Shown here piece after piece: positions 2,396 to 19,523 of a stretch of 64,000 nt of DNA. The translations under genes were made by a program, and so were the position numbers. Position 1 is the stretch's first letter. Each line of letters begins with the position of its first letter. A model generated the notes under the pieces. The model saw nothing but the letters and a program-made list of their open reading frames with translations. It was not told where the DNA came from and ran no database searches. Origin of the DNA: Aquificota bacterium (GTDB lineage Bacteria; Thermosulfidibacterota; Thermosulfidibacteria; Thermosulfidibacterales; B14-G1); the NCBI GenBank assembly GCA_015486015.1, contig WFSL01000024.1, positions 41,780 through 105,779 of the forward strand. The letters run 5' to 3'.

Positions 2396-3394
2396 GTGAA
2401 TGATACGCTACTTGTGGTGTGCCTTTCCTCTTTGGGGGATGTAGTTTACACTATCCCAGCGGTTCGGTATTTGAAGGAACTCTATCCAGACGATAGGATA
2501 GTGTGGGTAGTAAATAGGGGTTATGAGAGCCTCCTGCGTTTCCTCCCCTTCGTGGATAGGGCTGTAGCTATGGCCCCGAAGCGTGAGGGGTTTAAAGCAG
2601 CCCTTTATCAGGTGAAGGCTGAAAAGCCAGCGGTGGCCTATGATTTTCAGGGGAGCTTGAAGAGCATGCTGTTGATCTATCTCTCAGGGGCCAAGAGCAG
2701 GATAGGCCAAATTGCAAGTGGATGGAGGGGGCTCCTTGGGAGTCTGTTTTTGAACAAGAGGGTGAATCCTCCTGCCTTGCTCCATAAGGTGGATGAACGA
2801 ATGGCCCTTGTCTCTCATGAGGGGGTGACCGGTTTATCCTCCTTTGGGCTGGAGATCCCCAGGGATGAGGATCAAAAGGCACGTTCCCTCATTGGACCTC
2901 TGGGTATCAGGGGCCCCTATGTTGCCCTCTTGCCTGGTGCCTGTTGGCCTACAAAGCGGTGGCCTGTGGAGCATTTTGCCTGGTTAGCTGGGATGTTGAA
3001 GAGGTATTATTCTATTCCTTCCCTGGTTCTCTGGAGGCCAGTGGATGAGGAGGTGATAGTTCCGCTGCGCGGTGATACTCGTGTGAAGGTGACTCCTCTC
3101 ATGAGCCTTGGGGAAACAATGGCGCTATTGAAGCGCAGTCTCGTGGTTGTAGGTGGAGACACGGGCCTCCTACATCTGGCGGCTGCCTTGGGGCGACCCA
3201 CTCTGGGTCTCTATGGTCCATCTCATGCCTGGAGGGAGGGTCCTTATGGCGATCATCACCTCGTCTTAGAGGTTTCCTGTGAAGAGAGGGGCTGCTACAG
3301 GAAGAGGTGCAGTCGGGCATGCGTGGCTTCTATCCCTAAGGAGATGGTGTGGGATGCACTAAAGGTGATACTGGATGAGGAGATGGGCAGGTGA
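2396..3394 (+). CDS. Glycosyltransferase family 9 (ADP-heptose:LPS heptosyltransferase-like)
   Basis: N-terminus LLVVCLSSLGDVVYTIPAVRYLKELYPD and the C-terminal GGDTGLLHLAAALGRPTLGLYGPS motif are typical of WaaC/WaaF-type heptosyltransferases. Confidence 0.75.
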   Translation: MNDTLLVVCLSSLGDVVYTIPAVRYLKELYPDDRIVWVVNRGYESLLRFLPFVDRAVAMAPKREGFKAALYQVKAEKPAVAYDFQGSLKSMLLIYLSGAKSRIGQIASGWRGLLGSLFLNKRVNPPALLHKVDERMALVSHEGVTGLSSFGLEIPRDEDQKARSLIGPLGIRGPYVALLPGACWPTKRWPVEHFAWLAGMLKRYYSIPSLVLWRPVDEEVIVPLRGDTRVKVTPLMSLGETMALLKRSLVVVGGDTGLLHLAAALGRPTLGLYGPSHAWREGPYGDHHLVLEVSCEERGCYRKRCSRACVASIPKEMVWDALKVILDEEMGR

Positions 3395-3435
3395 GCTTTT
3401 GAGGGGTTATCTTTGGGGAGTTTTAGGGGGTGGTG

Positions 3436-3711
3436 GGTATGCAGCGTGCCCATATATGGGTTTCAGGAAGGGTTCAGGGTGTGTGGTATCGGGCGTCCAC
3501 TGTGGAGGAGGCTCGGAAGTTAGGTTTGAAGGGCTGGGTGAGAAACCTTCCGGATGGGAGAGTGGAGATCTTGGTCGAGGGTCGTAAGGAGAACTTGGAT
3601 AGGCTCATTGCTTGGTGTCATGAGGGTCCCCCATTGGCCATAGTGGATGAGGTTAGGGTGGTCTGGGAACCTTACATTGGGGATCTCTCCGGCTTTACGT
3701 TGGCCTATTAA
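3436..3711 (+). CDS. acyP: Acylphosphatase
   Basis: About 90 aa with the VSGRVQGVWYRAST and GWVRNLPDGRVEI signature motifs of acylphosphatase. Confidence 0.85.
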   Translation, partial: GMQRAHIWVSGRVQGVWYRASTVEEARKLGLKGWVRNLPDGRVEILVEGRKENLDRLIAWCHEGPPLAIVDEVRVVWEPYIGDLSGFTLAY

Positions 3712-3764
3712 AGGTGGGAGAAAGGTGGGCAGATCATACTTGAACGGGGTGAAGTGTGATTTTC

Positions 3765-4682
3765 TCAGGCGTTATAGAGTTGAAGTGCTAATTGTTCAAT
3801 GTAGGGGCGATTCTCAAGTTTTGAGATCCAAGTAGTGGGAATGGCATCAATTCCAAGATATGCCCCAGAAATAGCCCCTGCCATAGCTCCAAGTGTGTCA
3901 CGGTCACCGCCGTTTAACACTGCGCACATCAGGCAGTTTTTGTAAGAATCAGTATGGCGTAAAAAGGCATAGACCGCAAAAGGCATGGATTCGTGGATAG
4001 CAACGGATCTACCTATCTTGCTGGCGGCATCCGATGGTTGACTCCCTTTTGTGATAAGCTCCTTAATGAAGGCCATCTTGTTGCGGATCTCTCCTGTTTC
4101 TGCTGCCTCTATGAGAGATTCTATGAAGCTGCTGAGAGGAAAAGGCTTAGAGGGGTCCAATTCTAAGGCCTTTGCTATGGCCAAGGCCTGAATTGCTGCC
4201 CCATCTCTCCCTATGGGATGGGCATGGGTTACCTCTGCAGATAGTTTGGCCTTTTCTAAGATATCGGGCTTGCCGTGGAAAAAGATGCCCACTGGCACAA
4301 TGCGCATTGCTGAGCCGTTCCCAAAAGACCCCTGCCCGCCAAAGAGGCTTTGAGCCGCCTCTTTATATGTGATCTTTTGGCGGCTCACCAGATCAAAGAC
4401 CTTTGGGGGGCCAGGGGCATACCCCCGCCACGGTTCTCTAAGGAAGTTGCGCCGGAAGGTCTCTCCTATATGCTCCTGGTCTATGTCCCCTTTTTCCAAG
4501 AGAGATTCGGCAAGGCCAATTGCCATGGCGGTATCGTCCGTGTATCTAAGTACTGTAGTGCGATCTATTATCTGAACAAGGGCATCCTCCCGAGAATAGC
4601 GAAAGGCCAGCTCCCCGATGGCATCACCCAGGGCGCTCCCTATCATCGCTCCCACGAATTTGCTTTTGAGATCAAGGGGCAT
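3765..4682 (-). CDS. ADP-ribosylglycohydrolase family protein (ARH/DraG-like)
   Basis: N-terminus GAMIGSALGDAIGE...YTDDTAMAIGLAESL is the ARH metal-binding signature; C-terminal GGDTDTLGAMAGAISGAYLG is the second conserved Asp cluster. Confidence 0.8.
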   Translation of the reverse strand: MPLDLKSKFVGAMIGSALGDAIGELAFRYSREDALVQIIDRTTVLRYTDDTAMAIGLAESLLEKGDIDQEHIGETFRRNFLREPWRGYAPGPPKVFDLVSRQKITYKEAAQSLFGGQGSFGNGSAMRIVPVGIFFHGKPDILEKAKLSAEVTHAHPIGRDGAAIQALAIAKALELDPSKPFPLSSFIESLIEAAETGEIRNKMAFIKELITKGSQPSDAASKIGRSVAIHESMPFAVYAFLRHTDSYKNCLMCAVLNGGDRDTLGAMAGAISGAYLGIDAIPTTWISKLENRPYIEQLALQLYNA

Positions 4683-4896
4683 GAATCTCGACCTCTGACA
4701 AATCTATGATCACTTCTAATTTAGAATTTATCATGGAGAACTACCAAATTCAAGATCAGTGTAGTTTTTGGACCTTTTAAGATCCCAATATACAGGAGGA
4801 TTATTATTTAATAAATCAATTTGATCTATTGGTTTTTTATATATAAAAGTTTGGCTGGACCGTTAGGTCAGCATGAAATCTTGAGGGGGTGTGGGT

Positions 4897-6360
4897 ATGG
4901 AACAAGTGAAATGCACTGTGCCCAAGGCCCTAACAAAAAGGATAGGCCTTGTCTTGGTAATGTTGGTGTCCTTGGTGCTGATATTGGTAACGCAGAATAT
5001 TTCCTTTGGTGCCGAGGTGGTGTTTGTGAATGCACCCAGGGAGACCTGGCCTAAGGAGAAGCTTACCTTAGGGACTGAGGCAAGACTCAGATACGAAAGC
5101 CTCCATAATTTTAATTTCCTTGGGTATGGTAATTCTGTCCCCGTTGGTAAGAAAAGGGACGATATCCTTCTTGGAAGATTAAGGGTTGGTGTTAATTACA
5201 AGTTTAGTGAAAGGTTAAGGGCCTCTTTATGGGGTTATCAGGCAAATGCCTGGGATTTCTCGATTCCTCTAAAGACCTTTAAAAACCCCATCTTTGGTAT
5301 GGAAGATCAGCCATTCGAGGACAGATTAGAGCTATACAAGGCTTATATTGAGGTGAGGCTTTTGGATAAACTCAAGCTCAAAGTGGGCAGACAACGGCTG
5401 GATTATGGGGATTTTAGAACGTTTGGCCTCTGTAACTGGACCAATACGGGTCCTTATCTTTGGGATGCAGTAAAGCTTTCATATGATTTTAACAGGGGCG
5501 ATTTCATAGATATCTTTTATGGGAGAACCAAGATAAATGATTCAAAGAAATTCAGCTTAAACCACAGGCATGCCTTCAATGGCGTAGGCATGTACAGCAG
5601 CTTCAAGCTTCCCTTTTTAAAGGCAACAATCGAGCCTTTCTTCTCATACAAGGGGGATAATACAGATAAATACAGTGGTGAAAAAGGTGGGGAAGGAAGG
5701 CTGAACGAATACTATATAGGCGCCAGAATCTGGGGCAGAGACTTTTATAACTTCGATTATGATTTCTGGTTCTCTAAGGAGTTTGGAAGGAGAGGTCCAG
5801 ACGGTATAGATGCTTATGCCTATCATTTGCTTGTGGGTTATAATTTCAAAAATCTGTGGGCTAAGCCAAGGCTCAGTTTGGAGTTTACCTACTCCTCAGG
5901 GGATGACGACCCTGACGATGGGGACCATAAGACCTTCGATGTAGGGTATGGTGTGTGGGGTTCTTGGTATGGAAACCAATGGAGTTTCTTCCGTTGGAGG
6001 AACTTTCAAGACCTCCAGACAAACCTTGAGCTGTGGCCTGTTAAAGGGGTACACGTGGTTTTGGGTCTGCATAACTATTGGTTGGCAAAGAGGGAGGACG
6101 CCTGGTACCTGAATCCGCATCTCTATAGAGACCCTAAAGGCGATTCGGGTAGAAAGGTGGGGGAGACCTTCGATGTTACTGTTAATGTGAATTTAAGCAA
6201 GGTATTTCCAAATGCTTCTCTGCTTAAAGGCCACTTTTTGAGTGCTACCTATGGGCACTTCTTCCCCAGCGAGGTTCCACAAAATATGGCGGATGAGGAA
6301 AGTGGAGCAAACTGGTTTTACATCCAATGGGGTTTTAAGCGTTCATGGAAGATTCTCTGA
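4897..6360 (+). CDS. Outer-membrane beta-barrel protein, alginate-export/porin-like family
   Basis: Signal peptide (hydrophobic LVLVMLVSLVLILV then FGA|EV) followed by alternating aromatic/hydrophilic beta-strand patterning rich in Y/W/F/G/D/N. The LRYESL motif near the N-terminus is reminiscent of the AlgE-type export barrel. An AT-rich promoter region lies upstream. Confidence 0.55.
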   Translation: MEQVKCTVPKALTKRIGLVLVMLVSLVLILVTQNISFGAEVVFVNAPRETWPKEKLTLGTEARLRYESLHNFNFLGYGNSVPVGKKRDDILLGRLRVGVNYKFSERLRASLWGYQANAWDFSIPLKTFKNPIFGMEDQPFEDRLELYKAYIEVRLLDKLKLKVGRQRLDYGDFRTFGLCNWTNTGPYLWDAVKLSYDFNRGDFIDIFYGRTKINDSKKFSLNHRHAFNGVGMYSSFKLPFLKATIEPFFSYKGDNTDKYSGEKGGEGRLNEYYIGARIWGRDFYNFDYDFWFSKEFGRRGPDGIDAYAYHLLVGYNFKNLWAKPRLSLEFTYSSGDDDPDDGDHKTFDVGYGVWGSWYGNQWSFFRWRNFQDLQTNLELWPVKGVHVVLGLHNYWLAKREDAWYLNPHLYRDPKGDSGRKVGETFDVTVNVNLSKVFPNASLLKGHFLSATYGHFFPSEVPQNMADEESGANWFYIQWGFKRSWKIL

Positions 6361-6372
6361 GGAGGTAGGATT

Positions 6373-7644
6373 ATGGAAGACTACCATGGAATGTGGGCAG
6401 AGCTTGGTCTTGATTTAGAAAGACACGATGAGTTCTTAAAGGGTCTCGGCCCTGCTTACCAGGAAATATACCTGAGTCAGAGATTCAGGCCCAAGGGCAT
6501 GGAGTACTTTGATTTCATCACCTCTGAGGTTCATGGATTGAGGATTAAAGAGCTATTGGAGCTTAAAGAAAAGGGATGCAGGATTGTGGGTACCTTTTGT
6601 GTCTATGTGCCCGAGGAGATCGTCATGGCTACAAGTGGCGTATGGGTTGGTGTCTGTGGAGGCTCTCAGTTCTCTATTCCCGATGCTGAAACGACGCTAC
6701 CCAGAAACCTGTGCCCCCTTATCAAATCTGCCTTTGGATTCATGAAGGCCAAAGCCTCTCCCTACTATAGGGTCCCTGATCTATTTGTGGGTGAGGCTAC
6801 CTGTGACGGGAAGAAGAAGGTATGGGAGATATTTGGAAACTATGTGCCCTTCTACACCATGGAGATTCCCAATGCCAAAAATTATATGGGCAAAAGGCTA
6901 TGGTTGGAGGAGGTGATAAAGTTCAAGGAGAAGATGGAGATGGAGTCTGGTATTTCCATCACCCCTGAAAGGTTAGAGGAGGGGATCCTGGCAGTAAATA
7001 GGAAAAGGAGGGCTTTGGCCAGGCTCTTCGACCTCAGAAAGGCTGATCCTCCTCCCATTAGCGGGAAGGATGCCCTCTTGGTGTCGCAGATCGCCTATTA
7101 TGATGATCCCGAAAGGTTTGCCACAAAAGTGAATGACCTTTGCGACGAGCTGGAGGAAAGGGTGCAAAAGGGGATGGGTGTTGTAGAAAAAGGGACACCC
7201 AGGATCATGATTTCGGGCTGCCCATTTGCCCTTCCTTTCTGGAAGGTTCACCACATTGTTGAAAGCAGTAAAGCGGTTGTTGTTTGTGAAGAGAGCTGTG
7301 TGGGTACCAGATATTTCACCAACCTGGTAGACGAGGGACTTCCCACATTAGAGGATAAGTTAGAGGCCATAGCCGAGCGCTATCTCAAGATAAACTGTAG
7401 CTGCTTTACTCCTAATGATGAAAGGATCGAAGAAATTGCACAATATGTTAAAGATTTTAAGGTTGATGGGGTCATTCTCTTTACCCTCCAGTTTTGCCTT
7501 ACCTATAGCATAGAGTGTATTAAGGTACAGGAGGCCTTAAAGAAGCTCAGTGTTCCAGTGTTAGAGATAGAGACAGACTATGGGGAGCAAGATGTAGGGC
7601 AGTTGCAAACAAGGATAGAGGCGTTTATAGAGCAAATATTATAG
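6373..7644 (+). CDS. 2-hydroxyacyl-CoA dehydratase family protein (HgdB / D-component-like subunit)
   Basis: The protein has the spaced cysteines (CVYVPEE, C-D-GKKK, CEESCVG, CFTPND, CLTYSIEC) and overall architecture of the 2-hydroxyglutaryl-CoA dehydratase D-component / benzoyl-CoA reductase B/C subunit family. It is immediately followed by the cognate activase. Confidence 0.7.
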   Translation: MEDYHGMWAELGLDLERHDEFLKGLGPAYQEIYLSQRFRPKGMEYFDFITSEVHGLRIKELLELKEKGCRIVGTFCVYVPEEIVMATSGVWVGVCGGSQFSIPDAETTLPRNLCPLIKSAFGFMKAKASPYYRVPDLFVGEATCDGKKKVWEIFGNYVPFYTMEIPNAKNYMGKRLWLEEVIKFKEKMEMESGISITPERLEEGILAVNRKRRALARLFDLRKADPPPISGKDALLVSQIAYYDDPERFATKVNDLCDELEERVQKGMGVVEKGTPRIMISGCPFALPFWKVHHIVESSKAVVVCEESCVGTRYFTNLVDEGLPTLEDKLEAIAERYLKINCSCFTPNDERIEEIAQYVKDFKVDGVILFTLQFCLTYSIECIKVQEALKKLSVPVLEIETDYGEQDVGQLQTRIEAFIEQIL

Positions 7645-7657
7645 GGGTTTTGATGGC

Positions 7658-8401
7658 ATGTTTGGTGGTATTGATATCGGCTCTCGGACAGTGAAGATTG
7701 TGATTATGGAGAATGGACATGTAAGGGATTTTCAGGTGATAAATAGCGGTCATGACCCTTATGCTCAGGCCTTTAAGCTAATAAATACCTATAAACCAAA
7801 AAGATTAGTGGCTACAGGATACGGACGTCATGCCCTGGAGTTGGATCTTGCTCATAAGGTGATTACGGAGATAAAGGCCCATGCCATAGGCGCAAGGCAT
7901 CTTTATCCCAGCTGCAGGACAGTGATTGATGTGGGGGGCCAGGATAGCAAGGTCATGTCCTTGAGTGAGAACGGGAAAGTTATGGATTTTAAGATGAATG
8001 ATCGTTGTGCCGCTGGGACTGGAAGGTTCCTTGAGATTATGGCCAAAACCCTGGGGTTTTCAATAGAAGAGTTTGGTGAAGAGGCGTTATCCGCTCAGGA
8101 GTCGGTAAAGATAAACAGCATGTGTACCGTCTTCGCAGAATCGGAGGTGATCTCTCTCATATCAAGGCGTGTACCTTTGTTGAGCATTGCCTTGGGCGTG
8201 CATGAGGCCATTGCGGATCGCATCTCCTCTTTGGCTCACAGGGTGGAGGTCTTGTCCGATGTAGTCTTTACCGGAGGGGTGGCCAGGAACCCTTGTGTCC
8301 ACAGGTTGTTGGAAGAGAGGCTTAGGCAGAGGATATTAGTGCCTCAACATCCGGAGATAGTGGGGGCTTTGGGTGCAGCTATTGAGGCAGAGACCATTTA
8401 A
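7658..8401 (+). CDS. CoA-substrate-specific enzyme activase (HgdC/BcrAD-BadFG ATPase family)
   Basis: N-terminal GIDIGSRTVKIVIMEN (ASKHA actin-like fold), GYGRH, DVGGQDSK and CAAGTGRFLE motifs are typical of the ATP-dependent [4Fe-4S] activator of 2-hydroxyacyl-CoA dehydratases. Confidence 0.85.
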   Translation: MFGGIDIGSRTVKIVIMENGHVRDFQVINSGHDPYAQAFKLINTYKPKRLVATGYGRHALELDLAHKVITEIKAHAIGARHLYPSCRTVIDVGGQDSKVMSLSENGKVMDFKMNDRCAAGTGRFLEIMAKTLGFSIEEFGEEALSAQESVKINSMCTVFAESEVISLISRRVPLLSIALGVHEAIADRISSLAHRVEVLSDVVFTGGVARNPCVHRLLEERLRQRILVPQHPEIVGALGAAIEAETI

Positions 8402-8484
8402 GGCTGATCTGAGCGCTATGCTCCGGCCTTTGGAGAGTGCCTCGCGGGGCCTAACATCGGATTCATGGGAGTGGCACTTTTGCA

Positions 8485-8560
8485 GGCATTATAGGACACA
8501 TCCGCCTGTAGTGATCCTTATGGCGAGGAATTGCCAAATTCAATGGTAGACCCCAAAACT
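8485..8560. repeat. Copy A of a ~70-nt direct repeat in the 3' flank of the minus-strand ligase gene
   Basis: GGCATTATAGGACACATCCGCCTGTAGTGATCCTTATGGCGAGGAATTGCCAAATTCAATGGTAGACCCC aligns at roughly 80% identity with 10427-10495 (GGCATTGTAGGGTATGTCCGCTTGTAGTGATCTTTGCGGCGAAAATTGCCAAATTCAAGACCTGACCCCC). Confidence 0.7.
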
Positions 8561-8573
8561 GTTAGTCTCGACC

Positions 8574-10247
8574 TTACGTACCAGTCTCAAACAGATCTTT
8601 ATATCTTTCGCGCAGTTCGTATTTCTTTACTTTAGTCCCCACAGAAGTGGGTAACTGATCGAGAAAGACCACCTTTCTTGGTGTCTCAAAACCCGCCAGC
8701 TTTGCGCGGCAAAAATCAATCAGTTCTTGCTCAGTGGCGGTTTCTCCAGGTTTCAACACCACAGCGGCGACGACTGCTTCTCCCCAACGCCTATGTGGCA
8801 CGCCAAACACAGCCGCTCTCTCTACCTTAGGGCACATCATCAACGCATTTTCGACACGAATGGTTGAGATGCTCTCGCCTCGAGATTTGATAATATCTTT
8901 GATCCGGTCTACCATGATTATCAGGCCATTCTCGTCGTATTTACAGGCATCACCGCTGTGTAGCCACCCTCCACTAAAGGCTTTTTCTGTTGCTTCTTCG
9001 TTTTTATAATAGCCAGCCATCATAACTGGGGACCGCATTACCTTTTCCCCCACTACACCTGGAGGGCAGGTATTCATGTCTTCATCGACAATTTTTGTGG
9101 CGTAAAATGGGTGCGTCATGCCAAGATAGTTCACTGTGGGCGAGTTTTTCTCATATTTATCGTAAAATTTATGATGCCATCCTCTGGTATCGTAGACACA
9201 CTCAGTTTGTCCATCATAACTGAGAATCACAAGATCCCTACCAAAGATCTCTCTCAGCCTCTTATCAACGCTAGGGGGTAAAGGGCCCCATCCATACGAA
9301 CACGTTCTGAGGAATCTCGTTTCGTACGTACCAGGATTCTTCTCGTATATCTCTGCTATTTTGGCGAAATCAGCAGGACTTCCAAATACGCTGGTGAGTT
9401 TCTCTCTTGTTATTGTGTCAACTATGTGTTGGGGAGTTGGCAATCGAGTCATCACAGCCGTACCACCTGTTATATGGGCTGACAACATCATACCCTGAGC
9501 TGCAATGTGAAAAATAGGGTAATAGATGCCTATTTTGTAATCTAACTCTGTCAAAACTCCTGCCCCCCGAGAGTGGGTCAAAGCATGACTAATGGCGCAA
9601 AAGTATAAGTATACATGGCTAATCATAGCCCCCCTGGGCCACGCAGTGGTACCAGAAGTATACAATATCTCTGCAATATCATCGCCATGAATTCTTACAT
9701 CTGGCTCATCCTTGGATTGTTTATCAATAAATTCATCAAAAGAGGAGCTCCCAGGAGCAACATCCCCTCCGATGGGAATAGTAACGCCAATATCGATTCC
9801 AGTGTTCTTAAGTGTTTCTTCGATCTTCTGAATAAATCGTGCTTCAACGACAGAAAAAGACGGTTCAGTTTGCTTGATGATGTAGCTTACAACATCGTCT
9901 GCAAGCATCACATTAATCGGTACCAGCACCATTCCAGCCTTAAAGGTTCCAAGCTGAGAAATGTAATGTTCAGCACTGTTCAAAGCAAATGTGACGATTC
10001 TGTCTCCCCTTTTGAGTCCCCTTTCGAGCAAGGCGTTAGCAAACTGGTTTGCCTTTTCGTTGAGTTGTTTGTAAGTCAGCCTTTCGTTGTCCTTGAAAGC
10101 ATATGCTCCTTGCCATGAGACTAATGCTTCCTGATTGGGGCGGCTCCAAGTTATTCTTTCCGGGATGTCGCCTACTGCAATCCTATCCCATGGATGGTCG
10201 GCCCGTCTGTTGATCAGGCTTGTAACGTCAAATTTTATTTTTTTCAT
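8574..10247 (-). CDS. AMP-dependent synthetase/ligase (acyl-CoA synthetase family)
   Basis: The adenylate-forming enzyme motifs (LYTSGTTAWPRGAM, YGQTE, GWLHSGD, C-terminal K) place it in the acyl-CoA synthetase family. The likely start is MKKIKFD, with a GGGGG RBS; the upstream in-frame extension is not used. Confidence 0.85.
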   Translation of the reverse strand: MKKIKFDVTSLINRRADHPWDRIAVGDIPERITWSRPNQEALVSWQGAYAFKDNERLTYKQLNEKANQFANALLERGLKRGDRIVTFALNSAEHYISQLGTFKAGMVLVPINVMLADDVVSYIIKQTEPSFSVVEARFIQKIEETLKNTGIDIGVTIPIGGDVAPGSSSFDEFIDKQSKDEPDVRIHGDDIAEILYTSGTTAWPRGAMISHVYLYFCAISHALTHSRGAGVLTELDYKIGIYYPIFHIAAQGMMLSAHITGGTAVMTRLPTPQHIVDTITREKLTSVFGSPADFAKIAEIYEKNPGTYETRFLRTCSYGWGPLPPSVDKRLREIFGRDLVILSYDGQTECVYDTRGWHHKFYDKYEKNSPTVNYLGMTHPFYATKIVDEDMNTCPPGVVGEKVMRSPVMMAGYYKNEEATEKAFSGGWLHSGDACKYDENGLIIMVDRIKDIIKSRGESISTIRVENALMMCPKVERAAVFGVPHRRWGEAVVAAVVLKPGETATEQELIDFCRAKLAGFETPRKVVFLDQLPTSVGTKVKKYELRERYKDLFETGT

Positions 10248-10396
10248 ATATACCCCCTTTGCACAATTTCCTCCAATCTCCTTTGTCCCCCTCAAAGGCC
10301 CTTCGCAAGTAGCACTTCACAGCTCTAAAACGGATTTCCGATGATCCTATCACCTTTGCCAAATAACTTTTATATATTGTGAGATTTAGATAAATT

Positions 10397-10500: not shown

Positions 10501-11955
10501 CTAAAGGAGTTCTGCCAGCCTTTTCTTGTCTATCTTTCCTACCGAATTCTTGGGGATCTCTTTTAGAACTATAAATTCTCTCGGGCGCTTGAAATCTGCC
10601 AACTTTTCTTTACAAATAGCCTTGAGTTTTTCAGTAATATCTTCACCACTTTCATCTGTAGGTGAGATGAATGCAACTGGTTGTTGGCCCAGTATCGTGT
10701 CTCTTCCCATTACACATACTTCTTTTAAAAGCCCAGTCTCCATGAGGACTTTTTCAATCTCGATTGGATATACATTTTCACCTTGAACAATTATCATGTC
10801 CCCCATCCTACCAAACAGGGTCAAGAAACCTTCTTTATCTAACTTCCCCAAGTCTCCCATCCTAAGATAATCACCAAAGAATGCACTCTTTGTGTCTGCA
10901 TTAATGTAGCCCTTCATATATCTGGGTCGTGTTACTACCTCTCCTACCTTACCCACTACGAATTTATTTTCATCTAAGATCTTCACTTCGACCCCTTTGA
11001 CCGCCTTGCCAACCGTTTCTGAATGGGAGATGGCGTACTTATCATCTAAAATTGTTATTGTCCCACCTACTTCTGTTGATCCATAGAAATTGAATAATTT
11101 TATGTGAGGGAATCTTTTCTTGAGTGCCCTTATGACCTGAGGTCTCATAGGAGCACCTGCGTACCCGAATATTTTAGTTCCTAAAAGCTTGTACTTTTTT
11201 GATATGCCGGAAAGAATTAAAAGAGCAAAAATGGTTGGAGGGCCTAATAGCACATCTATACTATACTCTTCCAGAAGATGTGCCACATTTTGAGGCGTAG
11301 TATCGTTAGTTAATATGACGGTTTCACCCAGTATTATGGCGGGTATTAATTGATCCTCGCAACCTATCGCATGATATAAAGGTGCAGCTATCAGTTGCTT
11401 CATATCTGACTCGAATCCAAGACCTTCGATCATTACATTTGCATAAAATAGGCTGTTTCTATTCGTATGTAAGACCCCTTTTGGAGTACCTGTTGTACCA
11501 GAAGTGAAGAGTATGAAAGCGTTTTCGCTCTTGGAAACTGGAGTTTCTCCGCTTATATCCAGCTCTTTTGCAATTTTTGCGTTTATCTTTGTAACTCTTT
11601 TTATACTACTTACTTTTCCCCCATAAATGGGATTCAATATAATCGCCTTCGATTGAGAAGCATCTATTATATATTTTATTTCTTCTGAAGTTAGGCGATT
11701 GTTTACAGGGACAGTTACCATACCCAATTTGTTTAGTGACAAAAGAGATATTACAAATTCTACCTGGTTATTTAAGAGTAGGGCTACGCTATCACCTTCG
11801 TTTAAACCGATCTCATTTTTTAGATAGTATGAGAATTTATCGACAAGTTTAGATATCTGGCCAAAGGTGAATCTGCTCTCATTGTCAACAACGAAAAGTT
11901 TGCTTTTATTTAACTGGCTAATCTTATAAAACTGTTGATAGATTGACATATTCAT
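10501..11955 (-). CDS. Adenylate-forming enzyme (AMP-ligase; acyl-ACP / acyl-CoA synthetase-like)
   Basis: ILFTSGTTGTPKGV and YGSTE adenylation motifs and a C-terminal GK. The gene is AT-rich, and its start overlaps the upstream ACP gene stop by 4 nt, implying translational coupling. Confidence 0.85.
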   Translation of the reverse strand: MNMSIYQQFYKISQLNKSKLFVVDNESRFTFGQISKLVDKFSYYLKNEIGLNEGDSVALLLNNQVEFVISLLSLNKLGMVTVPVNNRLTSEEIKYIIDASQSKAIILNPIYGGKVSSIKRVTKINAKIAKELDISGETPVSKSENAFILFTSGTTGTPKGVLHTNRNSLFYANVMIEGLGFESDMKQLIAAPLYHAIGCEDQLIPAIILGETVILTNDTTPQNVAHLLEEYSIDVLLGPPTIFALLILSGISKKYKLLGTKIFGYAGAPMRPQVIRALKKRFPHIKLFNFYGSTEVGGTITILDDKYAISHSETVGKAVKGVEVKILDENKFVVGKVGEVVTRPRYMKGYINADTKSAFFGDYLRMGDLGKLDKEGFLTLFGRMGDMIIVQGENVYPIEIEKVLMETGLLKEVCVMGRDTILGQQPVAFISPTDESGEDITEKLKAICKEKLADFKRPREFIVLKEIPKNSVGKIDKKRLAELL

Positions 11956-12221
11956 CGTGCATCCTCTTGTGTTTTTTTAGAAATGTATCTGCACAAAGAG
12001 CCGAAATTTTCAAATGCATCCATGTCCATAAGTTCATCATCATCTATCTCTATATTAAATTTTTGTTCTAAAATGCTGATAAGCTCTGTTAGCGCTAATG
12101 AGTCAAGACCAAAATCGCTACCGTATATTTCAGTTTCATCAGTAACCTTACTGTACTCTATATTTTGGACGTTATCTACTGCTGTAATTGCTTCATAACA
12201 TAATTTTCTTATGTCTTTCAT
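11952..12221 (-). CDS. Acyl carrier protein
   Basis: 89 aa, acidic, with the phosphopantetheine attachment motif GLDSLALTEL (DSL serine) in a four-helix-sized protein. Confidence 0.8.
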   Translation of the reverse strand: MKDIRKLCYEAITAVDNVQNIEYSKVTDETEIYGSDFGLDSLALTELISILEQKFNIEIDDDELMDMDAFENFGSLCRYISKKTQEDAR

Positions 12222-12230
12222 GATATCCTC

Positions 12231-12815
12231 CTATTCTAAAAACCAGATGTGAAAAGGTTTTCTTTCAAGAGTCTTGATCCTCTGATCCGGTATTCCAATT
12301 GTAATAAGTGCCAAGAGTTCTCCTTTATCCTTATCAATTCCTAATATCTCCTGAGCTTCAGTTCGACTTTTTTCATCTATTCCTATCCAACATGTTCCTA
12401 ATCCTTTATCATAGGCAAGCAACAATATATTTTGGATCACTGCGTAAACAGAGGCCCTTTGGAATTCTATATCTGTATCTCCTATTCTATTGCTTCTCAG
12501 CGCACCAATAAGGTAGGGTGCATTGCCAAAATTCTTCAAGAATTTTTTTATAATAAGTTGAGAAAGATCTTTCTTTTGGGAGATTTTTTCTATTGCCGTT
12601 TTCGCTTTCTCATAGAGAAAATTTCCTATGTGGTCCTTTCTGCTTAGTACATATTCTCTGGAAAGGATTACAAAATTCCAGGGTTGAGAATTGAATGGGG
12701 AAGGTGCCCAGACCGCTGTATTTATGATTTCTCTGATAATCTCCTCGCTTATCTTCTTATCTTTATACTTTCTAATAGATCTTCTATTTGTTATGATGTC
12801 GGAGAGCGGCTTCAT
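12231..12815 (-). CDS. Nitroreductase-family FMN oxidoreductase
   Basis: N-terminus RRSIRKY...AVWAPSPFNSQPWNFVIL and GIDEKSRTEAQEILGI... match the nitroreductase / NADH-oxidase fold. Confidence 0.8.
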   Translation of the reverse strand: MKPLSDIITNRRSIRKYKDKKISEEIIREIINTAVWAPSPFNSQPWNFVILSREYVLSRKDHIGNFLYEKAKTAIEKISQKKDLSQLIIKKFLKNFGNAPYLIGALRSNRIGDTDIEFQRASVYAVIQNILLLAYDKGLGTCWIGIDEKSRTEAQEILGIDKDKGELLALITIGIPDQRIKTLERKPFHIWFLE

Positions 12816-13886
12816 CTAAACCACCTTTACAGCTTTTGTTTTTTTGAGAAAATGGATTCTCTCTTCGTAAAAACGCTTGCAATAATCGCAGCTTCCGCCT
12901 ACTGTGTAACAATCATTGTCACAATCGGGTCTATACTCATAAAAATAATTTAAAAATCCGTCCAGATCTTTGTTCGATATAAATCTTCTGTTGTCTCTCA
13001 AATTTTCAGGTTTCTGTAAAAACATGGGGAAAAGGTGCATCAAATTTCCATCATAGTCGAGGGATGTATAAGCATTCATGAAGAATTTAATTAGTTCTGG
13101 ATGGCTTTCTCTACGAACAATTTTGAAGTATTCAATGCCGAAATTGTCGTGATAAAATGGTACGTCTTCTGGTCTGATGAATCTTGTTTTCAAGATATTT
13201 ACTGGAAACTCACTTAGAAGCTCTTTGTAACAGAATTTATAATAGTAATTGTGCGTCTTATCTTGGGCAAAATCTGGATTGGAACGGTGTAGATAGTGCT
13301 GAGGTAAAAAGGGACAGTCAAATCTACAAATTTCATTACAGAGTATTTCATACTCTAAATCGGGGAATTTTCTTAGCTTTTCTAAAAAGTTGAAGTCTCT
13401 TCCTTTAAAAAGTGAAGGAATAATTCTATGGACCCCCATATCTTTAAAACGTTTTATCTTTTGGAGGCTGTCTGCTTGGCATATAGCACTAACTGAAATT
13501 TCTAAATTGCTACTTTGAGCAGCCAATTCTATGAGGGGAATGGCGGTAAGGATAATACCTTTTACTCCTGTATCTTCTATCCTTTTTAGGAAATCGATGA
13601 TCTTATTCCTATATTTTTCTATAATATCAGGTGTTGCCCTCAAAGTATTTAAATTAAGATGAACATCTATGTTGTATTTTTTGCCCTTTTTCACGAACTC
13701 CACCAGATCCTTCCAGGAAGCATGCTCTCTCCCCTTACCAAAACTAATAGAAGAGAAAGAAAATATATCATCTTCGACTGAACCATAAAATTCTTTAACT
13801 ATGCCTTTCCCCTTCTGGTTACAACGATCAGCATATTCTATAAGCTCGATATTTTTAAAGCTAGTGCCTACGCAAAATTTAATCAT
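12816..13886 (-). CDS. Peptidase U32-family protein (UbiU/RlhA/TrhP-like, probable Fe-S enzyme)
   Basis: FSxxxFG...VHLNLNTL, then GVKGIILTAIPLIELAA, then a LEYEILCNEICRFDCPF cysteine cluster. This parallels the U32 TIM-barrel core and its conserved Cys ligands (compare YhbU/UbiU). An additional C-terminal CDNDCYTVGGSCDYC cluster is present. Confidence 0.55.
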   Translation of the reverse strand: MIKFCVGTSFKNIELIEYADRCNQKGKGIVKEFYGSVEDDIFSFSSISFGKGREHASWKDLVEFVKKGKKYNIDVHLNLNTLRATPDIIEKYRNKIIDFLKRIEDTGVKGIILTAIPLIELAAQSSNLEISVSAICQADSLQKIKRFKDMGVHRIIPSLFKGRDFNFLEKLRKFPDLEYEILCNEICRFDCPFLPQHYLHRSNPDFAQDKTHNYYYKFCYKELLSEFPVNILKTRFIRPEDVPFYHDNFGIEYFKIVRRESHPELIKFFMNAYTSLDYDGNLMHLFPMFLQKPENLRDNRRFISNKDLDGFLNYFYEYRPDCDNDCYTVGGSCDYCKRFYEERIHFLKKTKAVKVV

Positions 13887-15443: not shown

Positions 15444-16306
15444 TCCCCAAGGATGAGCTCTTACATCCTGGTCATCCTGCCTGTCCTGGGTGTGGTGCAG
15501 CTCTTTCTATGCGTCTGGCCCTAAAGGCCTTAGGGAAGAGAGTGATGATGGTGATTCCCGCCTCGTGTTGGTCTATCATTGCTGGGGCCCATCCCTTCTT
15601 TTCCCTGGGGGTACCCTTGCTCCATGTTCCCTTCCTTTCCGCTGCTGCGGCAGCGGCAGGGGTGAGGGCTGCTTTGGAGGCCCGGGGTGAGGAGGACGTC
15701 ACCGTGGTGGCGTGGGCAGGAGACGGTGGTACATACGATATAGGCTTTCAGGGTTTCTCAGGCGCGGCCGAGAGGGGCACAGACATGATATACGTCTGTT
15801 ACGATAATGAGGCGTATATGAATACAGGGGGGCAGCGGAGCTCTGCAACCCCAGTGGGTACCTTCACGGGTACTACACCGAAGGGGAAGAGGGAAGGGAA
15901 AAAGGATCTGTTGAGTGTTATAGTGGCCCACGGTGCCTCTTATGTGGCTACTGCGACGATAGCCTATCCCCAGGATATGATAGAAAAGCTTAGGAAAGCC
16001 AAGCAGAAGAAGGGGTTTCGTTTTGTGCATCTGCTTTCACCTTGCCCCACGGGATGGGGTTACCCAGAGGATAGGACTGTAACCATGGCCAGGATGGCCG
16101 TGGAGTCTGGGGCCTATCCCCTTTTGGAGTGGGAGGAAGGGGGATGGCATGTTACCCAAAGGCCTTCATTTAGTGTCAGCGTAGAGGAGTACCTTGAGGC
16201 ACAGGGACGGTTTAAGGGTTGGGAAAGGGAGGAACTCAAGGGATTGGCAAGGAGGGTGCTCTTACAGTGGCATAGGCTGAGAGATTTGGAGGGTATGCCT
16301 CGATGA
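15410..16306 (+). CDS. 2-oxoacid:ferredoxin oxidoreductase, beta subunit (TPP-binding, KorB/PorB-like)
   Basis: PACPGCGAALSMRLA and the GDGGTYDIGF TPP-binding motif. An alternative ATG at 15440 overlaps the alpha stop (ATGA); the ATG at 15410 has the better GGGAGA RBS. Confidence 0.85.
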   Translation: MDGEPRGSSAMIPKDELLHPGHPACPGCGAALSMRLALKALGKRVMMVIPASCWSIIAGAHPFFSLGVPLLHVPFLSAAAAAAGVRAALEARGEEDVTVVAWAGDGGTYDIGFQGFSGAAERGTDMIYVCYDNEAYMNTGGQRSSATPVGTFTGTTPKGKREGKKDLLSVIVAHGASYVATATIAYPQDMIEKLRKAKQKKGFRFVHLLSPCPTGWGYPEDRTVTMARMAVESGAYPLLEWEEGGWHVTQRPSFSVSVEEYLEAQGRFKGWEREELKGLARRVLLQWHRLRDLEGMPR

Positions 16307-17637
16307 TAGAGGAGAGGGACTTTCGAGTATTAGTGGTAGACGATGATAAGGCGTTTTCCCTGTTGCTCTCCAGTATCCTGAAGGATGAGGGATACCAAGT
16401 GGAGGTGGCATATTCTGGGGAGGCTGCTTTAAAGAAGATCAAGGGGTTTGCACCGCATCTGGTTTTGGTGGACTTGAAGATGCCAGGAATGGGTGGCCTG
16501 GAGCTTATGCAGAATGTGAAGGACGGTGGCTCTGATGTTGACTTTGTAGTGATCACTGCCTTTGGTACGGTAGAGACAGCGGTGGAGGCTATGAAGTTGG
16601 GCGCCTTCGATTATCTCACTAAGCCCTTGAAAGATCCGGAGGAACTGCGGCAGTTGGTAGGAAGGATATTTGAGAGACAGCGGCTGGTGCTGGAGAATCA
16701 GCTTCTCAAAGAGCAACTTGGTCGGGACATGCCTCCCGTAGAGCTCATCTTTCTGGGGATGGAGGATGTGAGGCGAGAGGTGGAAGAGGTGGCACCTACC
16801 AACGCCACTGTCATGCTTTATGGGGAGAGTGGAACAGGCAAATCTCTCATAGCAAAAGTGCTCCACCAGTGGAGCGGGAGAAAGGGACCCTTTGTGGAGA
16901 TAAATTGCGCGGCTATTCCAGAGACGCTTTTGGAGGCAGAACTTTTTGGTTACGAGAGGGGGGCCTTTACGGGTGCTGTTTCCAGCAAGAGAGGAAAGTT
17001 CGAATTGGCCCAAAAGGGAACCATTTTTCTGGATGAGGTCTCGGAAATGGGATTCTCCTCACAGGCTAAACTCCTTAGGGTATTGCAGGATGGTGCCTTC
17101 GAGCGTTTGGGGGGACTGGCCACCCTTAAGACCAATGCGAGGGTGGTTGCGGCCACAAATAGGAACCTGAGGGAGGCCATCAGGGAGAAGAGGTTTAGGG
17201 AGGATCTCTATTATCGCCTCAATGTCTTCCCCATAGAAATCCCCCCTTTAAGACAAAGGAAGGGTGTGATACCGGACTTAGTGAGATACTTCGTGGCCTT
17301 ATCAAGCAAGAGGTTAGGGAAGGAGATAAAGGAGGTGCCTGGGGGTGTGATGGATACCTTGCAAGGTTACCCTTGGCCTGGGAATATTCGGGAGTTGCAG
17401 AACGTGATTGAGAGGGCGGTGATTCTGAGCAAGGGAGAGAGGCTTGCTCCACCTCGATTGGAGGTTGAGCAAGGAGAGGATTTCATTCCAGAAGGGAGCC
17501 TTAAGGAGGTGGAGAAAAGGGCCATCGAGAAGGCACTGAAGCGGTTTGGTGGGAACAGGAGGAGGGCCGCAGAGTTCTTAGGCATCTCCCTAAGGGCTCT
17601 TCAATACAAGATCAAGGGTTATGGGATTACCCAGTGA
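16303..17637 (+). CDS. Sigma-54-dependent response regulator (NtrC family: REC + AAA+ + Fis-type HTH)
   Basis: Receiver domain (VLVVDDD...VDLKMPGMGG), Walker A GESGTGKS, an intact GAFTGA motif (ELFGYERGAFTGA) and a C-terminal HTH (AAEFLGISLRALQYKIK). Confidence 0.9.
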   Translation: MIEERDFRVLVVDDDKAFSLLLSSILKDEGYQVEVAYSGEAALKKIKGFAPHLVLVDLKMPGMGGLELMQNVKDGGSDVDFVVITAFGTVETAVEAMKLGAFDYLTKPLKDPEELRQLVGRIFERQRLVLENQLLKEQLGRDMPPVELIFLGMEDVRREVEEVAPTNATVMLYGESGTGKSLIAKVLHQWSGRKGPFVEINCAAIPETLLEAELFGYERGAFTGAVSSKRGKFELAQKGTIFLDEVSEMGFSSQAKLLRVLQDGAFERLGGLATLKTNARVVAATNRNLREAIREKRFREDLYYRLNVFPIEIPPLRQRKGVIPDLVRYFVALSSKRLGKEIKEVPGGVMDTLQGYPWPGNIRELQNVIERAVILSKGERLAPPRLEVEQGEDFIPEGSLKEVEKRAIEKALKRFGGNRRRAAEFLGISLRALQYKIKGYGITQ

Positions 17638-17816: not shown

Positions 17817-18269
17817 ATGAAAAGGTGTTCTTTGAGTATATGTTTGAGCATACTTCTCACTGCCTTTCCGTCTGTGTTATGTGCTCGATCTGCCATCTTT
17901 ATCCTGATGGAGAGGTATGATCCCAACACCGAGCTTGCCCTTGAGGGTCAGGTCTTGAGGGACCTGACGGTAAAGGGGGCTTCTTCTGATAGACCTGTCG
18001 TAATCCCTGTCTCTATGAAGGGGAGGGTAATTTTTGTGATCCTGGGTCCCCATTGGTTTGTGAGGAACATGGGGATCTACCTGAGGAAAGGAGAATTGGT
18101 TCGGGTTGTGGGCTCAAAGGTCTATGGTAGAGATGGTAGGCTTTATATAATTGCCAGGGAGTTGTTCATCTCAGGTGGGAAGAGCTACCGTATCTATATA
18201 TTTAGGAATAAGCGTTATGTGCCTTTCTGGTATAGAACGAAGGAGACAGGCTATCCCATGCGCAGGTGA
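17817..18269 (+). CDS. Hypothetical secreted protein
   Basis: Signal peptide MKRCSLSICLSILLTAFPSVLCA. I recognise no conserved motifs. Its 3' end overlaps the rpoN 3' end in convergent orientation. Confidence 0.4.
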   Translation: MKRCSLSICLSILLTAFPSVLCARSAIFILMERYDPNTELALEGQVLRDLTVKGASSDRPVVIPVSMKGRVIFVILGPHWFVRNMGIYLRKGELVRVVGSKVYGRDGRLYIIARELFISGGKSYRIYIFRNKRYVPFWYRTKETGYPMRR

Positions 18270-19510
18270 GGTCCTCTCCTTTCTCTGCTCGAGGGAATTC
18301 CAAGCTCCATTCGATATTTGGTCACCGTACGCCGGGCCACCTTGTAGCCCCTCTTATTGAGCTCTTGTGCTATTTTTTCATCCCCCATAGGGGAGCGAGG
18401 GTCTTCTGCCTTAATCAGATTGTAGATAATCTCCTTGACTTCTCCTGCTTCCCCTTTGAAGAAGACACGAAGGGGGAAGGTGCCCCTGGGAGTATGGATG
18501 TACTTCCCTGTGAGAAGCCTCTGGACGGTTGATTTGCTCACCCCAAGGATGCGGGCTGCCTCCTCTGTAGATAGGGCTACAGGACTTGACCGTTTTGCGA
18601 GAAAGAATTTCCATTCCTTTTCCCCTATGTAGCGTCCAAGTTTCTTCAGGTACCTCTCTCTTAGCATGAGGCCCCTGATGGTGCCCAGGGCCTTGGCCCT
18701 CTTGTCCCGTAGATAGTGCCGGAGTTCTGGATTCCCAGGTATGGCCTTCACCCTCCTGCTGAGTGCCAGTTTTGGAATTCTATCTTGAGTGAGGGATACG
18801 ATAAGCTCTTCCCCTACATACAGGATCACGATGTCAGCCCGGATCCCGCCTTCCGTGTCTTGTGAGAAAGATGCTCCTGGGAAAGGGGTGAGATGAGAGA
18901 TACGCTCTACTACTTCTTCCAGCTCCTGAGGGGTGATCCTGAGCCTGGTGGCGAGGCGCCTTTTCTTCCCTTGCAAGAGAAGTTCCCAGCCCCTTGTCAG
19001 AAGTTCTTGTACCTTTTTGTCCTGTGGGTAAAGGAGCCTTGCCTGCATGAGGAGGCTCTCTTTCACGTTTCGGGCACCACACCCTATGGGATCTAAGGTA
19101 GAGAGGAGCCTTCTTCCTTCCTCTACATCCTCCAGGGTGGTAGATAACTCTTTTGCAATCTCGATAGGATCCCTTTCCAGGAACCCCTTGGGATTTAGAT
19201 AGGGGATCAGTTGACTGGCAGCCTCTCGGGCCCTTTGGGGGATATTCATGGTATAGAGCTGTTCATTCAAGTGCTCATGGAGGGTTTTCCCCTTATCGGC
19301 CAGCTTTTCCCACCAAGGGGTGGAGTCCTGTTCTTCTTCATCCCATGGAAACTCCCTCACCTCTATGAAGGGGTTTTCTTCTGCCTCTTGCCATATGGTC
19401 TCTTCCAGCTCCACCTGGGGCATGGCAATGAGACGCATGGCTTGGATAAGCACGGGCGTAACCCTGAGTTCAGGGCGTAGGGTGGTCTCTAAGTGTGTTT
19501 CAAGGGCCAT
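18251..19510 (-). CDS. rpoN: RNA polymerase sigma-54 factor
   Basis: N-terminus MALETHLETTLRPELRVTPVLIQAMRLI (region I, Leu/Gln pattern) and the C-terminal RpoN box ARRTVTKYRMELGIPSS with an HTH. Confidence 0.9.
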   Translation of the reverse strand: MALETHLETTLRPELRVTPVLIQAMRLIAMPQVELEETIWQEAEENPFIEVREFPWDEEEQDSTPWWEKLADKGKTLHEHLNEQLYTMNIPQRAREAASQLIPYLNPKGFLERDPIEIAKELSTTLEDVEEGRRLLSTLDPIGCGARNVKESLLMQARLLYPQDKKVQELLTRGWELLLQGKKRRLATRLRITPQELEEVVERISHLTPFPGASFSQDTEGGIRADIVILYVGEELIVSLTQDRIPKLALSRRVKAIPGNPELRHYLRDKRAKALGTIRGLMLRERYLKKLGRYIGEKEWKFFLAKRSSPVALSTEEAARILGVSKSTVQRLLTGKYIHTPRGTFPLRVFFKGEAGEVKEIIYNLIKAEDPRSPMGDEKIAQELNKRGYKVARRTVTKYRMELGIPSSRERRGPHLRMG

Positions 19511-19523
19511 GCCTGGGTGGTCC

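Follow-up and report, generated by a model that had tools for sequence, protein, structure and literature searches.

We examined a 64 kb stretch of contig WFSL01000024.1 from an Aquificota bacterium (all 64,000 nt of it are called the window below), in which the gene for a predicted outer-membrane barrel directly precedes those for a double-cubane cluster protein (DCCP) and its ATP-dependent reductase (DCCP-R). The three open reading frames lie on the same strand with gaps of 12 and 13 nt, confirming the coordinates and spacing given in a preliminary description of this DNA. Pfam also agrees with all three domain calls made there (alginate-export-like barrel, HgdB-family protein and activase). 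The locus is laid out as follows:

4897-6360 (+): 18-stranded outer-membrane barrel of the Alginate_exp (AlgE-like) type, as predicted by PF13372, an AlphaFold2 (AF2) model and Foldseek; 487-489 aa, with an alternative GTG start at 4891
6361-6372 (+): barrel/DCCP junction, read directly as the TGA stop, a GGAGG ribosome-binding site directly after it, 7 nt and then the DCCP ATG
6373-7644 (+): DCCP, class I by alignment and the predicted [8Fe-9S] catalytic component (NF040772, 6ENO/7YYL_C alignment, 7-Cys motif); 423 aa
7658-8401 (+): DCCP-R, archerase-type ATP-dependent reductase with a predicted [4Fe-4S] cluster bridging the dimer (TIGR00241, 7YYL_E, 4EHT); 247 aa

The second junction, between DCCP and DCCP-R, reads TAG-GGG-N10-ATG. 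Both junctions are kept in relatives, the first as TGA-GGAGG-N7-ATG in the related loci L001, L002, L161, L162 and L164. It is likely that the barrel, DCCP and DCCP-R genes form one transcription unit. Scans for consensus sigma-70 promoters and intrinsic terminators around the operon gave counts no higher than those in shuffled sequence and were uninformative. The window encodes RpoN (18251-19636) and two sigma-54 activator-type regulators (16303-17637 and 59624-60955), so that sigma-70 consensus scans may miss the relevant promoters.

The middle gene encodes a full-length DCCP. Its product matches Pfam HGD-D (E=1.4e-118) and passes the NCBIfam equivalog NF040772 ("double-cubane-cluster-containing anaerobic reductase") with 482.4 bits against a cutoff of 350, the match spanning profile positions 9-372 of 372. 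Using phmmer, residues 4-422 aligned to 6ENO/7YYL_C, the solved DCCP of Carboxydothermus hydrogenoformans (DCCP_Ch), at E ~1e-150. The 7-Cys motif is complete (C76-X18-C95-X18-C114-X29-C144-X164-C309-X32-C342-X32-C375), each cysteine being kept in 29-30 of 30 relatives and aligned to a cysteine of 6ENO. The spacers depart from the published pattern (CX19...CX166-170) by 1-2 residues, and the first three gaps equal those in the 6ENO sequence, where the alignment is ungapped. DCCP is a homodimer in which six cysteine ligands hold a [{Fe4S4(SCys)3}2(u2-S)] cluster (PMC7317905, PMC9351452). Judged by its sequence, the window protein would likewise supply six [8Fe-9S] ligands and a seventh cysteine near the cluster.

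In class I DCCPs, such as DCCP_Ch, an N-terminal four-helix extension closes the CoA funnel and leaves two narrow channels (PMC7317905). Residues 4-75 of the window protein align ungapped to the N-terminus of DCCP_Ch, and the two proteins are 423 and 421 aa long. The alignment thus places the window DCCP in class I, with a predicted extension closing the funnel. Because this extension closes the CoA channel in DCCP_Ch, the window protein is most likely a small-molecule reductase and not an acyl-CoA radical dehydratase. DCCP reduces acetylene, hydrazine and azide in vitro, and its physiological substrate is not known (PMC7317905, PMC9351452). The reported turnover of acetylene is 4 per min.

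The preliminary description had counted only one subunit gene at this locus and considered it anomalous beside heteromeric (A+B) enzymes. The count holds, the HGD-D gene of the operon being the only one in the 64 kb window. The anomaly disappears: the protein is not an orphan half of a heterodimer but a single-subunit-type, full-length ortholog of the solved homodimeric DCCP (NF040772, 6ENO/7YYL), and since DCCP is homodimeric no A/B partner is expected. The heteromeric 2-hydroxyacyl-CoA dehydratases (HadBC, HgdAB) and class I benzoyl-CoA reductases (Bcr/Bzd) share with it the HGD-D fold superfamily and an ATP-dependent archerase electron donor. They are however built from alpha and beta subunits and have a CoA funnel and [4Fe-4S] sites of the 3-Cys kind, whereas the window protein has one subunit type and the 7-Cys double-cubane motif. 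It scores far under the equivalog cutoffs of these enzymes (HadC 106/700, BzdN 89.6/453.8, BcrC 45.7/421 and BcrB 25.4/486 bits). A likeness to Escherichia coli YjiM/YjiL, also proposed earlier, holds in part. These class II DCCP candidates belong to the same 7-Cys 'cluster IV'/NF040772 family (PMC7317905; 10.1101/2022.07.06.499078) and share the single-subunit-plus-activase architecture. The likeness does not extend to class: YjiM (388 aa) is class II, without the N-terminal helices that close the channel, and might take a CoA ester (PMC7317905), unlike the 423 aa class I protein of the window.

The third gene encodes the reductase. Its product matches Pfam BcrAD_BadFG (E=4.7e-51) and TIGR00241 (243.9 bits against a cutoff of 125.4), and in the PDB it matches DCCP-R (7YYL_E, E=1.1e-50) and a dehydratase activator (4EHT, E=9e-57). 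C117 in NDRCAAGTG and C156 in SMCTVFAESE correspond to the C. hydrogenoformans cluster ligands C115 and C152 (PMC9351452). A DCCP-R gene adjoins DCCP in 61 of 80 other DCCP loci. The window pair resembles the C. hydrogenoformans pair (CHY_0487/CHY_0488; 6ENO, 7YYL) in its full-length alignment, seven cysteines and class I extension, in an N111-equivalent residue within the stretch LPRNLCPLIKS, and in an adjacent archerase-type reductase with both cluster cysteines, in the order dccp then dccpR. The second and third genes thus represent a new member of a solved, named family and almost certainly work as the DCCP/DCCP-R pair does in the Carboxydothermus system. The two loci differ in the first gene: C. 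hydrogenoformans is a monoderm, whereas the window host, an uncultured diderm resembling Desulfobacterota/Thermodesulfobacteriota, has an outer membrane and its operon starts with the barrel gene.

The barrel was identified by domain and fold. Its product matches PF13372 (Alginate_exp) at E=6e-36, with 124.5 bits against a cutoff of 25.2. At the N-terminus, a basic n-region and ~20 hydrophobic residues ending ISFG-A indicate a Sec-type signal peptide at residues ~1-38. Sequence comparison with the PDB returned chance-level matches only (E >0.2), making a fold search necessary. The AF2 model (37 homologs; pLDDT 83, pTM 0.80) has a helix at residues 10-32, within the signal peptide, followed by 18 beta-strands. 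In a Foldseek search of the PDB the top 17 matches were all AlgE (E ~1e-18, TM 0.63/0.74), with OprD/Occ-type and other outer-membrane channels ranked after them. We are therefore confident, on the strength of the model, that the first gene encodes an outer-membrane barrel of the AlgE fold, in line with the signal-peptide-bearing beta-barrel proposed in the preliminary description.

Like Pseudomonas aeruginosa AlgE (3RBH, 4AFK), the barrel combines the predicted 18-stranded fold and the PF13372 domain with many conserved basic residues predicted to face the lumen. A crude strand-face heuristic on the model counted 23 K/R and 5 H, compared with 17 D/E, on the polar strand faces, and put about 14 strongly conserved basic residues at predicted lumen-facing positions. 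Unlike AlgE, to which it is 12-14% identical, the window barrel has no alginate genes nearby. No synthesis or scaffold genes of the Alg8, Alg44, AlgK or AlgX type occur among the genes annotated at 1-22080, and no alginate biosynthesis or scaffold genes among the recurrent neighbours in 80 related barrel loci. We take the protein to be an AlgE-fold channel and not an alginate exporter.

Conservation of the three-gene locus

Relatives were collected from both sides of the barrel/DCCP junction. For the barrel we fetched 80 genomic loci encoding relatives, 77 of them with barrels at most 44% identical. For the DCCP, whose family has thousands of members, 80 metagenome loci at 50-67% identity were sampled (L081-L160). 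The DCCP relatives include a tight clade at 83-94% identity, after which identity drops to 69% or less. Amongst the barrel-side loci, the gene immediately after the barrel is a DCCP gene in just three, L001, L002 and L007, with barrels 71-78% identical to that of the window. The close relatives are:

L001: barrel 71%, DCCP 88%; full trio; EF-G, YcaO and DUF4412 upstream
L002: barrel 78%, DCCP 89%; trio with the barrel cut by the contig start; Mo-oxidoreductase downstream
L162/L163: barrel 67%, DCCP 83%; barrel and DCCP, then contig end; DnaA and IspD upstream
L164/L172: barrel 89% (L164), DCCP 85-86%; full trio; DUF4398, AspRS and HisRS downstream
L174: DCCP 88%; full trio; contig ends just past DCCP-R
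L161: barrel a 137-aa stub, DCCP 93-94%; DCCP and DCCP-R intact; RND adaptor and LptE upstream
L007: barrel 74%, DCCP 80-86%, both fragmented; no DCCP-R; selenium/sulfur (Se/S) genes downstream
L165/166, L167 and L173: barrel 63-68%, alone, without DCCP; lactamase-like, serpin and unknown flanks

Intact barrel and DCCP genes thus occur together in about six lineages (the window, L001, L002, L162/163, L164/172 and L174). The flanks differ in every context, those of the window being EF-P, AccBC and an ADP-ribosylglycohydrolase (ARH) upstream and an acyl-CoA ligase downstream. Despite these differing flanks on both sides, the order, spacing and ribosome-binding-site junction of the trio are kept. 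The gene trio is therefore conserved together, within a narrow clade only, and in that clade it is a real and selectively maintained module. The barrel-first operon is a lineage-specific variant of which the literature searched contains no description.

The L161 stub is homologous to the window barrel over residues 1-126 and keeps the stop/ribosome-binding-site junction, indicating that it is a secondary deletion. The L161 DnaK is 92% identical to the window copy yet placed elsewhere relative to DCCP, showing rearrangement between related genomes. The window (4860-5050) and L161 (9530-9720) share about 190 nt at 100% identity, spanning the barrel ribosome-binding site, start and signal peptide, in surrounding DNA that is 60-90% identical. 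This indicates either recent recombination between the lineages or a chimeric metagenome assembly.

In L002 the trio faces a convergent gene set (3064-6818, -) for a 759 aa molybdopterin oxidoreductase, a four-cluster subunit (Fer4_11) and a chaperone like TorD/NarJ. The set is a periplasmic oxyanion/chalcogen reductase set of the Psr/Phs/Ttr/Ser type, which fits a sulfur or selenium oxyanion theme but may be coincidental. The contig is 6.9 kb long and comes from a 'Zixibacteria'-labelled metagenome-assembled genome. The phylum label is doubtful, its DCCP being 89% identical to Desulfobacterota-labelled loci.

Neighbourhoods of distant barrel and DCCP relatives

For the distant barrel relatives (30-44% identity), neighbouring genes were grouped into named clusters and counted as the number of loci with a member within 4 kb:

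25 loci: ATP-binding cassette (ABC) ATPase with TOBE_2
18 loci: ModB/WtpB-type permease
16 loci: ModA-type binding protein (TIGR01256, 96.7 bits against an NCBIfam equivalog cutoff of 62.5)
14 loci: WtpA-type binding protein (NF003196, 403 bits against an NCBIfam equivalog cutoff of 355)
14 loci: TauE
13 loci: SsuA/NMT1-type binding protein
10 and 7 loci: FmdE-like proteins, in two clusters
7 loci: helix-turn-helix and PBP_like regulator

Parts of molybdate/tungstate-type importers (ModA, WtpA or ModB) lay within 4 kb in 27 of the 77 distant loci, and some ABC importer part in 38 of 77. Examples amongst L003-L080 are L056 (8001-11133), L017 (6648-9365) and L009 (588-3500). Because these relatives adjoin tungstate/molybdate and sulfonate-type ABC importers, TauE and FmdE, the window barrel is by analogy most likely a small-anion channel. 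Neighbours such as WtpA/ModA, SsuA-like importers, TauE and FmdE point to the passage of small anions and not, as for AlgE, to polymer export. Together with the basic strand faces, the importer neighbours suggest that the barrel subfamily is a small-anion channel family. In Desulfobacterota and other anaerobes the distant barrels may constitute a family of oxyanion channels of the outer membrane that is so far undescribed, and their link to WtpA/ModA suggests a route through that membrane for tungstate or molybdate in anaerobes. A search of the literature for Alginate_exp barrels in Mo, W or Se uptake found nothing.

Next to DCCP the commonest neighbour is DCCP-R, followed by genes for selenium and sulfur handling. 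In the 80 DCCP loci, Se_S_carrier (PF11823) was found near DCCP in 17, mostly immediately downstream, and Aminotran_5 (cysteine desulfurase/Sec-lyase-like) in 16, mostly immediately upstream, with TusA in 10 and AIRS-type proteins (possibly SelD-like) in 4. In 30 of the 80 loci, one or more of these four types is found no more than four genes from DCCP. YeeE/YedE-type Sulf_transp genes are a further frequent neighbour. The next-nearest DCCPs fit this pattern. The DCCP gene of L170 (64%) is preceded by Sulf_transp, TusA, Se_S_carrier, Carb_kinase-like, AIRS, TusA-DsrE, Sulf_transp and TusA genes (L170 1776-9272). In L168 (65%) genes for a TOBE ATPase and two permeases precede it, and SBP_bac_11 and NMT1 genes are nearby. 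L007, a member of the trio clade, carries Se_S_carrier, Carb_kinase-like, two Sulf_transp halves and TusA past its barrel and DCCP (L007 10491-13199), homologous to the L170 set. Cross-links between DCCP loci and molybdate/tungstate ABC parts are sparse.

An association of DCCP with selenium is already in the literature and is reproduced by these counts. In the preprint from which NF040772 originates, 955 of 970 high-scoring NF040772 proteins come from SelD-encoding assemblies, and adjacency to the SAO (selenocysteine-assisted organometallic) import locus is described (10.1101/2022.07.06.499078). In Lin et al. 2015 the leading STRING partners of YedE, YedF and DUF3343 include the "dehydratase subunit" and the "activase" (PMC5322559). 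An outer-membrane component is mentioned in neither (10.1101/2022.07.06.499078; PMC5322559). The reading proposed for the window operon resembles that of the SAO and YedE/YedF/DUF3343 clusters (Haft preprint 2022; Lin et al. 2015) in that DCCP-type enzymes would act after a dedicated import system and DCCP is linked to selenium genes, Sulf_transp, TusA and Se_S_carrier adjoining DCCP in the sister loci L170 and L007. In contrast to these clusters, the window operon has the outer-membrane barrel as its only transport-related partner, and Sao, YedE, TusA, Se_S_carrier and SelD genes were not detected in the window.

Possible coupling of the barrel to the enzyme pair

Nitrogenase-like Fe-S clusters of high nuclearity are few, and that of DCCP is one of them; gene context is the main source of hypotheses on its substrate. 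On balance we favour a reading of the operon in which the known DCCP/DCCP-R pair and an AlgE-fold small-anion channel are co-transcribed and coupled via a substrate. A DCCP-R homodimer with its bridging [4Fe-4S] cluster would take an electron from a low-potential donor, bind MgATP, dock on DCCP and push the electron uphill to the [8Fe-9S] double-cubane cluster, which would then reduce a small molecule arriving via the narrow channels. In the narrow clade, with its gene placed directly upstream of dccp, the barrel would be translated from the same message and would admit a small anionic compound, or a precursor of it, that is finally reduced by DCCP. Our leading guess is that this compound is a Se or S species, since DCCP genes at other loci, the degraded L007 among them, adjoin genes for Se/S carriers, TusA, YeeE/YedE transporters and sometimes AIRS.

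As the barrel probably passes small anions and DCCP is elsewhere tied to the import of Se/S anions, a shared substrate is the most economical reading of their linkage, although we infer it only tentatively. That the barrel is a dedicated outer-membrane gate for the DCCP substrate, a small inorganic Se/S anion or related oxyanion, is unlikely. If it were so, the operon would be the first genetic handle naming the in vivo compound class of the nitrogenase-like [8Fe-9S] enzyme, and the barrel subfamily would comprise previously unrecognised outer-membrane oxyanion channels for tungstate/molybdate and Se/S uptake. Co-translation of a barrel with DCCP in diderms would complement the Se/S-carrier neighbours of other loci and narrow the substrate search to small, probably anionic and externally supplied compounds. 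The linkage is a modest but testable clue to the physiological substrate of DCCP.

Several results weigh against coupling through a substrate. The closest DCCP relative found, that of L161, is the one whose barrel is reduced to a stub; as its DCCP and DCCP-R are intact, the barrel is dispensable. Close barrel orthologs (63-68%) stand alone in L165/166, L167 and L173. No DCCP gene lies within 8 kb of the barrel in any of the 77 loci with barrels at most 44% identical, nor a barrel gene within 6 kb of DCCP in any of the 80 DCCP loci sampled at 50-67% identity. The barrel is therefore neither a general nor an indispensable partner of DCCP. Links between the barrel family and Se/S genes are sparse, comprising L007 and, weakly, L006 and L016. 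L007 itself has a fragmented barrel and DCCP and is missing DCCP-R, so that the locus may be decaying or misassembled. Searching the 64 kb window by tblastn with the L007 and L170 Se/S proteins returned nothing, and no inner-membrane transporter is present in the operon or elsewhere in the window. Acetylene and hydrazine, both reduced in vitro, are uncharged and would need no channel, azide being the sole anion. A dedicated route of uptake and degradation, as suggested in the preliminary description, is thus not upheld, given the missing inner-membrane transporter, the narrow clade and the deleted L161 barrel.

The main rival is an adventitious or purely regulatory linkage, in which the ancestor of the narrow clade acquired a general, possibly anion-preferring porin gene ahead of its dccp-dccpR operon, the genes being co-transcribed with no substrate in common. 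Because of the narrow distribution, the loss in L161 and the missing inner-membrane transporter, we consider this possibility nearly as likely as a shared substrate. The association is confined to a clade with DCCPs at least 83% identical and absent from the other loci on both sides (80/80 and 77/77), and the standalone close barrel orthologs and the L161 deletion fit it as well. So would a mosaic history, with which the lower GC content of the trio and first ligase (4.7-10.3 kb; 46-47% against a window baseline of ~52%) is consistent, and 190 nt are fully identical to L161 within otherwise diverged DNA. Against it, the order, spacing and ribosome-binding-site junction kept in about six lineages with differing flanks argue for selection, and barrel relatives and DCCP relatives are each tied to the uptake of small inorganic or organic anions. 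Were the linkage a clade-specific accident, the locus would be an ordinary new member of a known enzyme family.

Two further explanations are improbable. It is very improbable that the barrel works outwards, as AlgE does, secreting a polyanionic polymer or expelling the DCCP product. AlgE, an alginate export porin, does provide the best structural and Pfam matches, and TauE-type anion exporters flank 14 distant barrel relatives. However, polysaccharide synthesis and periplasmic scaffold genes are absent at 1-22080 and from the commonest neighbours in related loci, and those commonest neighbours are binding-protein-dependent importers, which work inward. Least probable of all, and essentially excluded, is the model of the preliminary description, an acyl-CoA radical enzyme (dehydratase or reductase) like YjiM whose CoA thioester substrate is made by the neighbouring ligase from a compound imported via the barrel. 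An AMP-binding acyl-CoA ligase gene does lie convergently just downstream, as described there, at 8574-10295 (-), 170 nt from the trio. Both HGD-D and BcrAD_BadFG are domains of the dehydratase/benzoyl-CoA reductase superfamily, and weak ligase-like matches occur a few kb from DCCP in L103 and L148. The HadC, BzdN and BcrC scores far below their cutoffs argue against such an enzyme, as does the alignment to DCCP_Ch from residue 4 onwards, which includes the N-terminal extension occluding the CoA funnel (PMC7317905). The ligase is encoded on the strand opposite to the trio, which has no ligase neighbour in L001, L002, L161, L162, L164, L172 and L174. Because it is absent beside the trio in every relative examined, its position in the window is coincidental. 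An acyl-CoA pathway built on this ligase was thus rejected, the ligase not being conserved beside the trio and the protein being of class I with a closed CoA channel (PMC7317905).

Flanking genes and upstream region

Upstream, the operon is bordered by a divergent gene and an intergenic region of 215 nt:

3765-4682 (-): ADP-ribosylglycohydrolase (ARH, DraG-like family), divergent from the operon
4703-4737: 17 nt inverted repeat adjoining the ARH start
4811-4829 (no strand assigned): AT-rich and near-palindromic element ATAAATCAATTTGATCTAT, ahead of the barrel gene within this intergenic region

The palindrome matches itself on both strands (3 matches against 0.35 expected) and is partly kept upstream of the barrel in L161, L164 and L001. 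It and the inverted repeat are candidate operators in a divergent promoter region. A riboswitch (for example Moco) or other known RNA in the leader was rejected, the only Rfam match in 4600-5000 being at chance level (E=2.9). Across the whole 64 kb window Rfam found no tRNA, rRNA, riboswitch or other family at gathering score.

The position of ARH near an ATP-driven nitrogenase-like reductase invites the thought of DraG-type regulation. Neither ARH nor the ligase was found beside the trio in any clade member. At an unrelated locus, L092, a 58%-identical ARH homolog (8393-9310) lies directly downstream of DCCP-R on the same strand, and in L135 a weak homolog (26%) lies ~3 kb from DCCP-R. With one strong recurrence and one weak, ARH was not accepted as a conserved partner of DCCP.

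Beyond the ligase, four genes at 10501-13886 (-) encode an AMP-binding ligase, a PP-binding carrier protein, a nitroreductase and a U32-peptidase-like protein. With a GC content of 36-40%, this cluster looks like a horizontally acquired island for a small acyl-carrier pathway.

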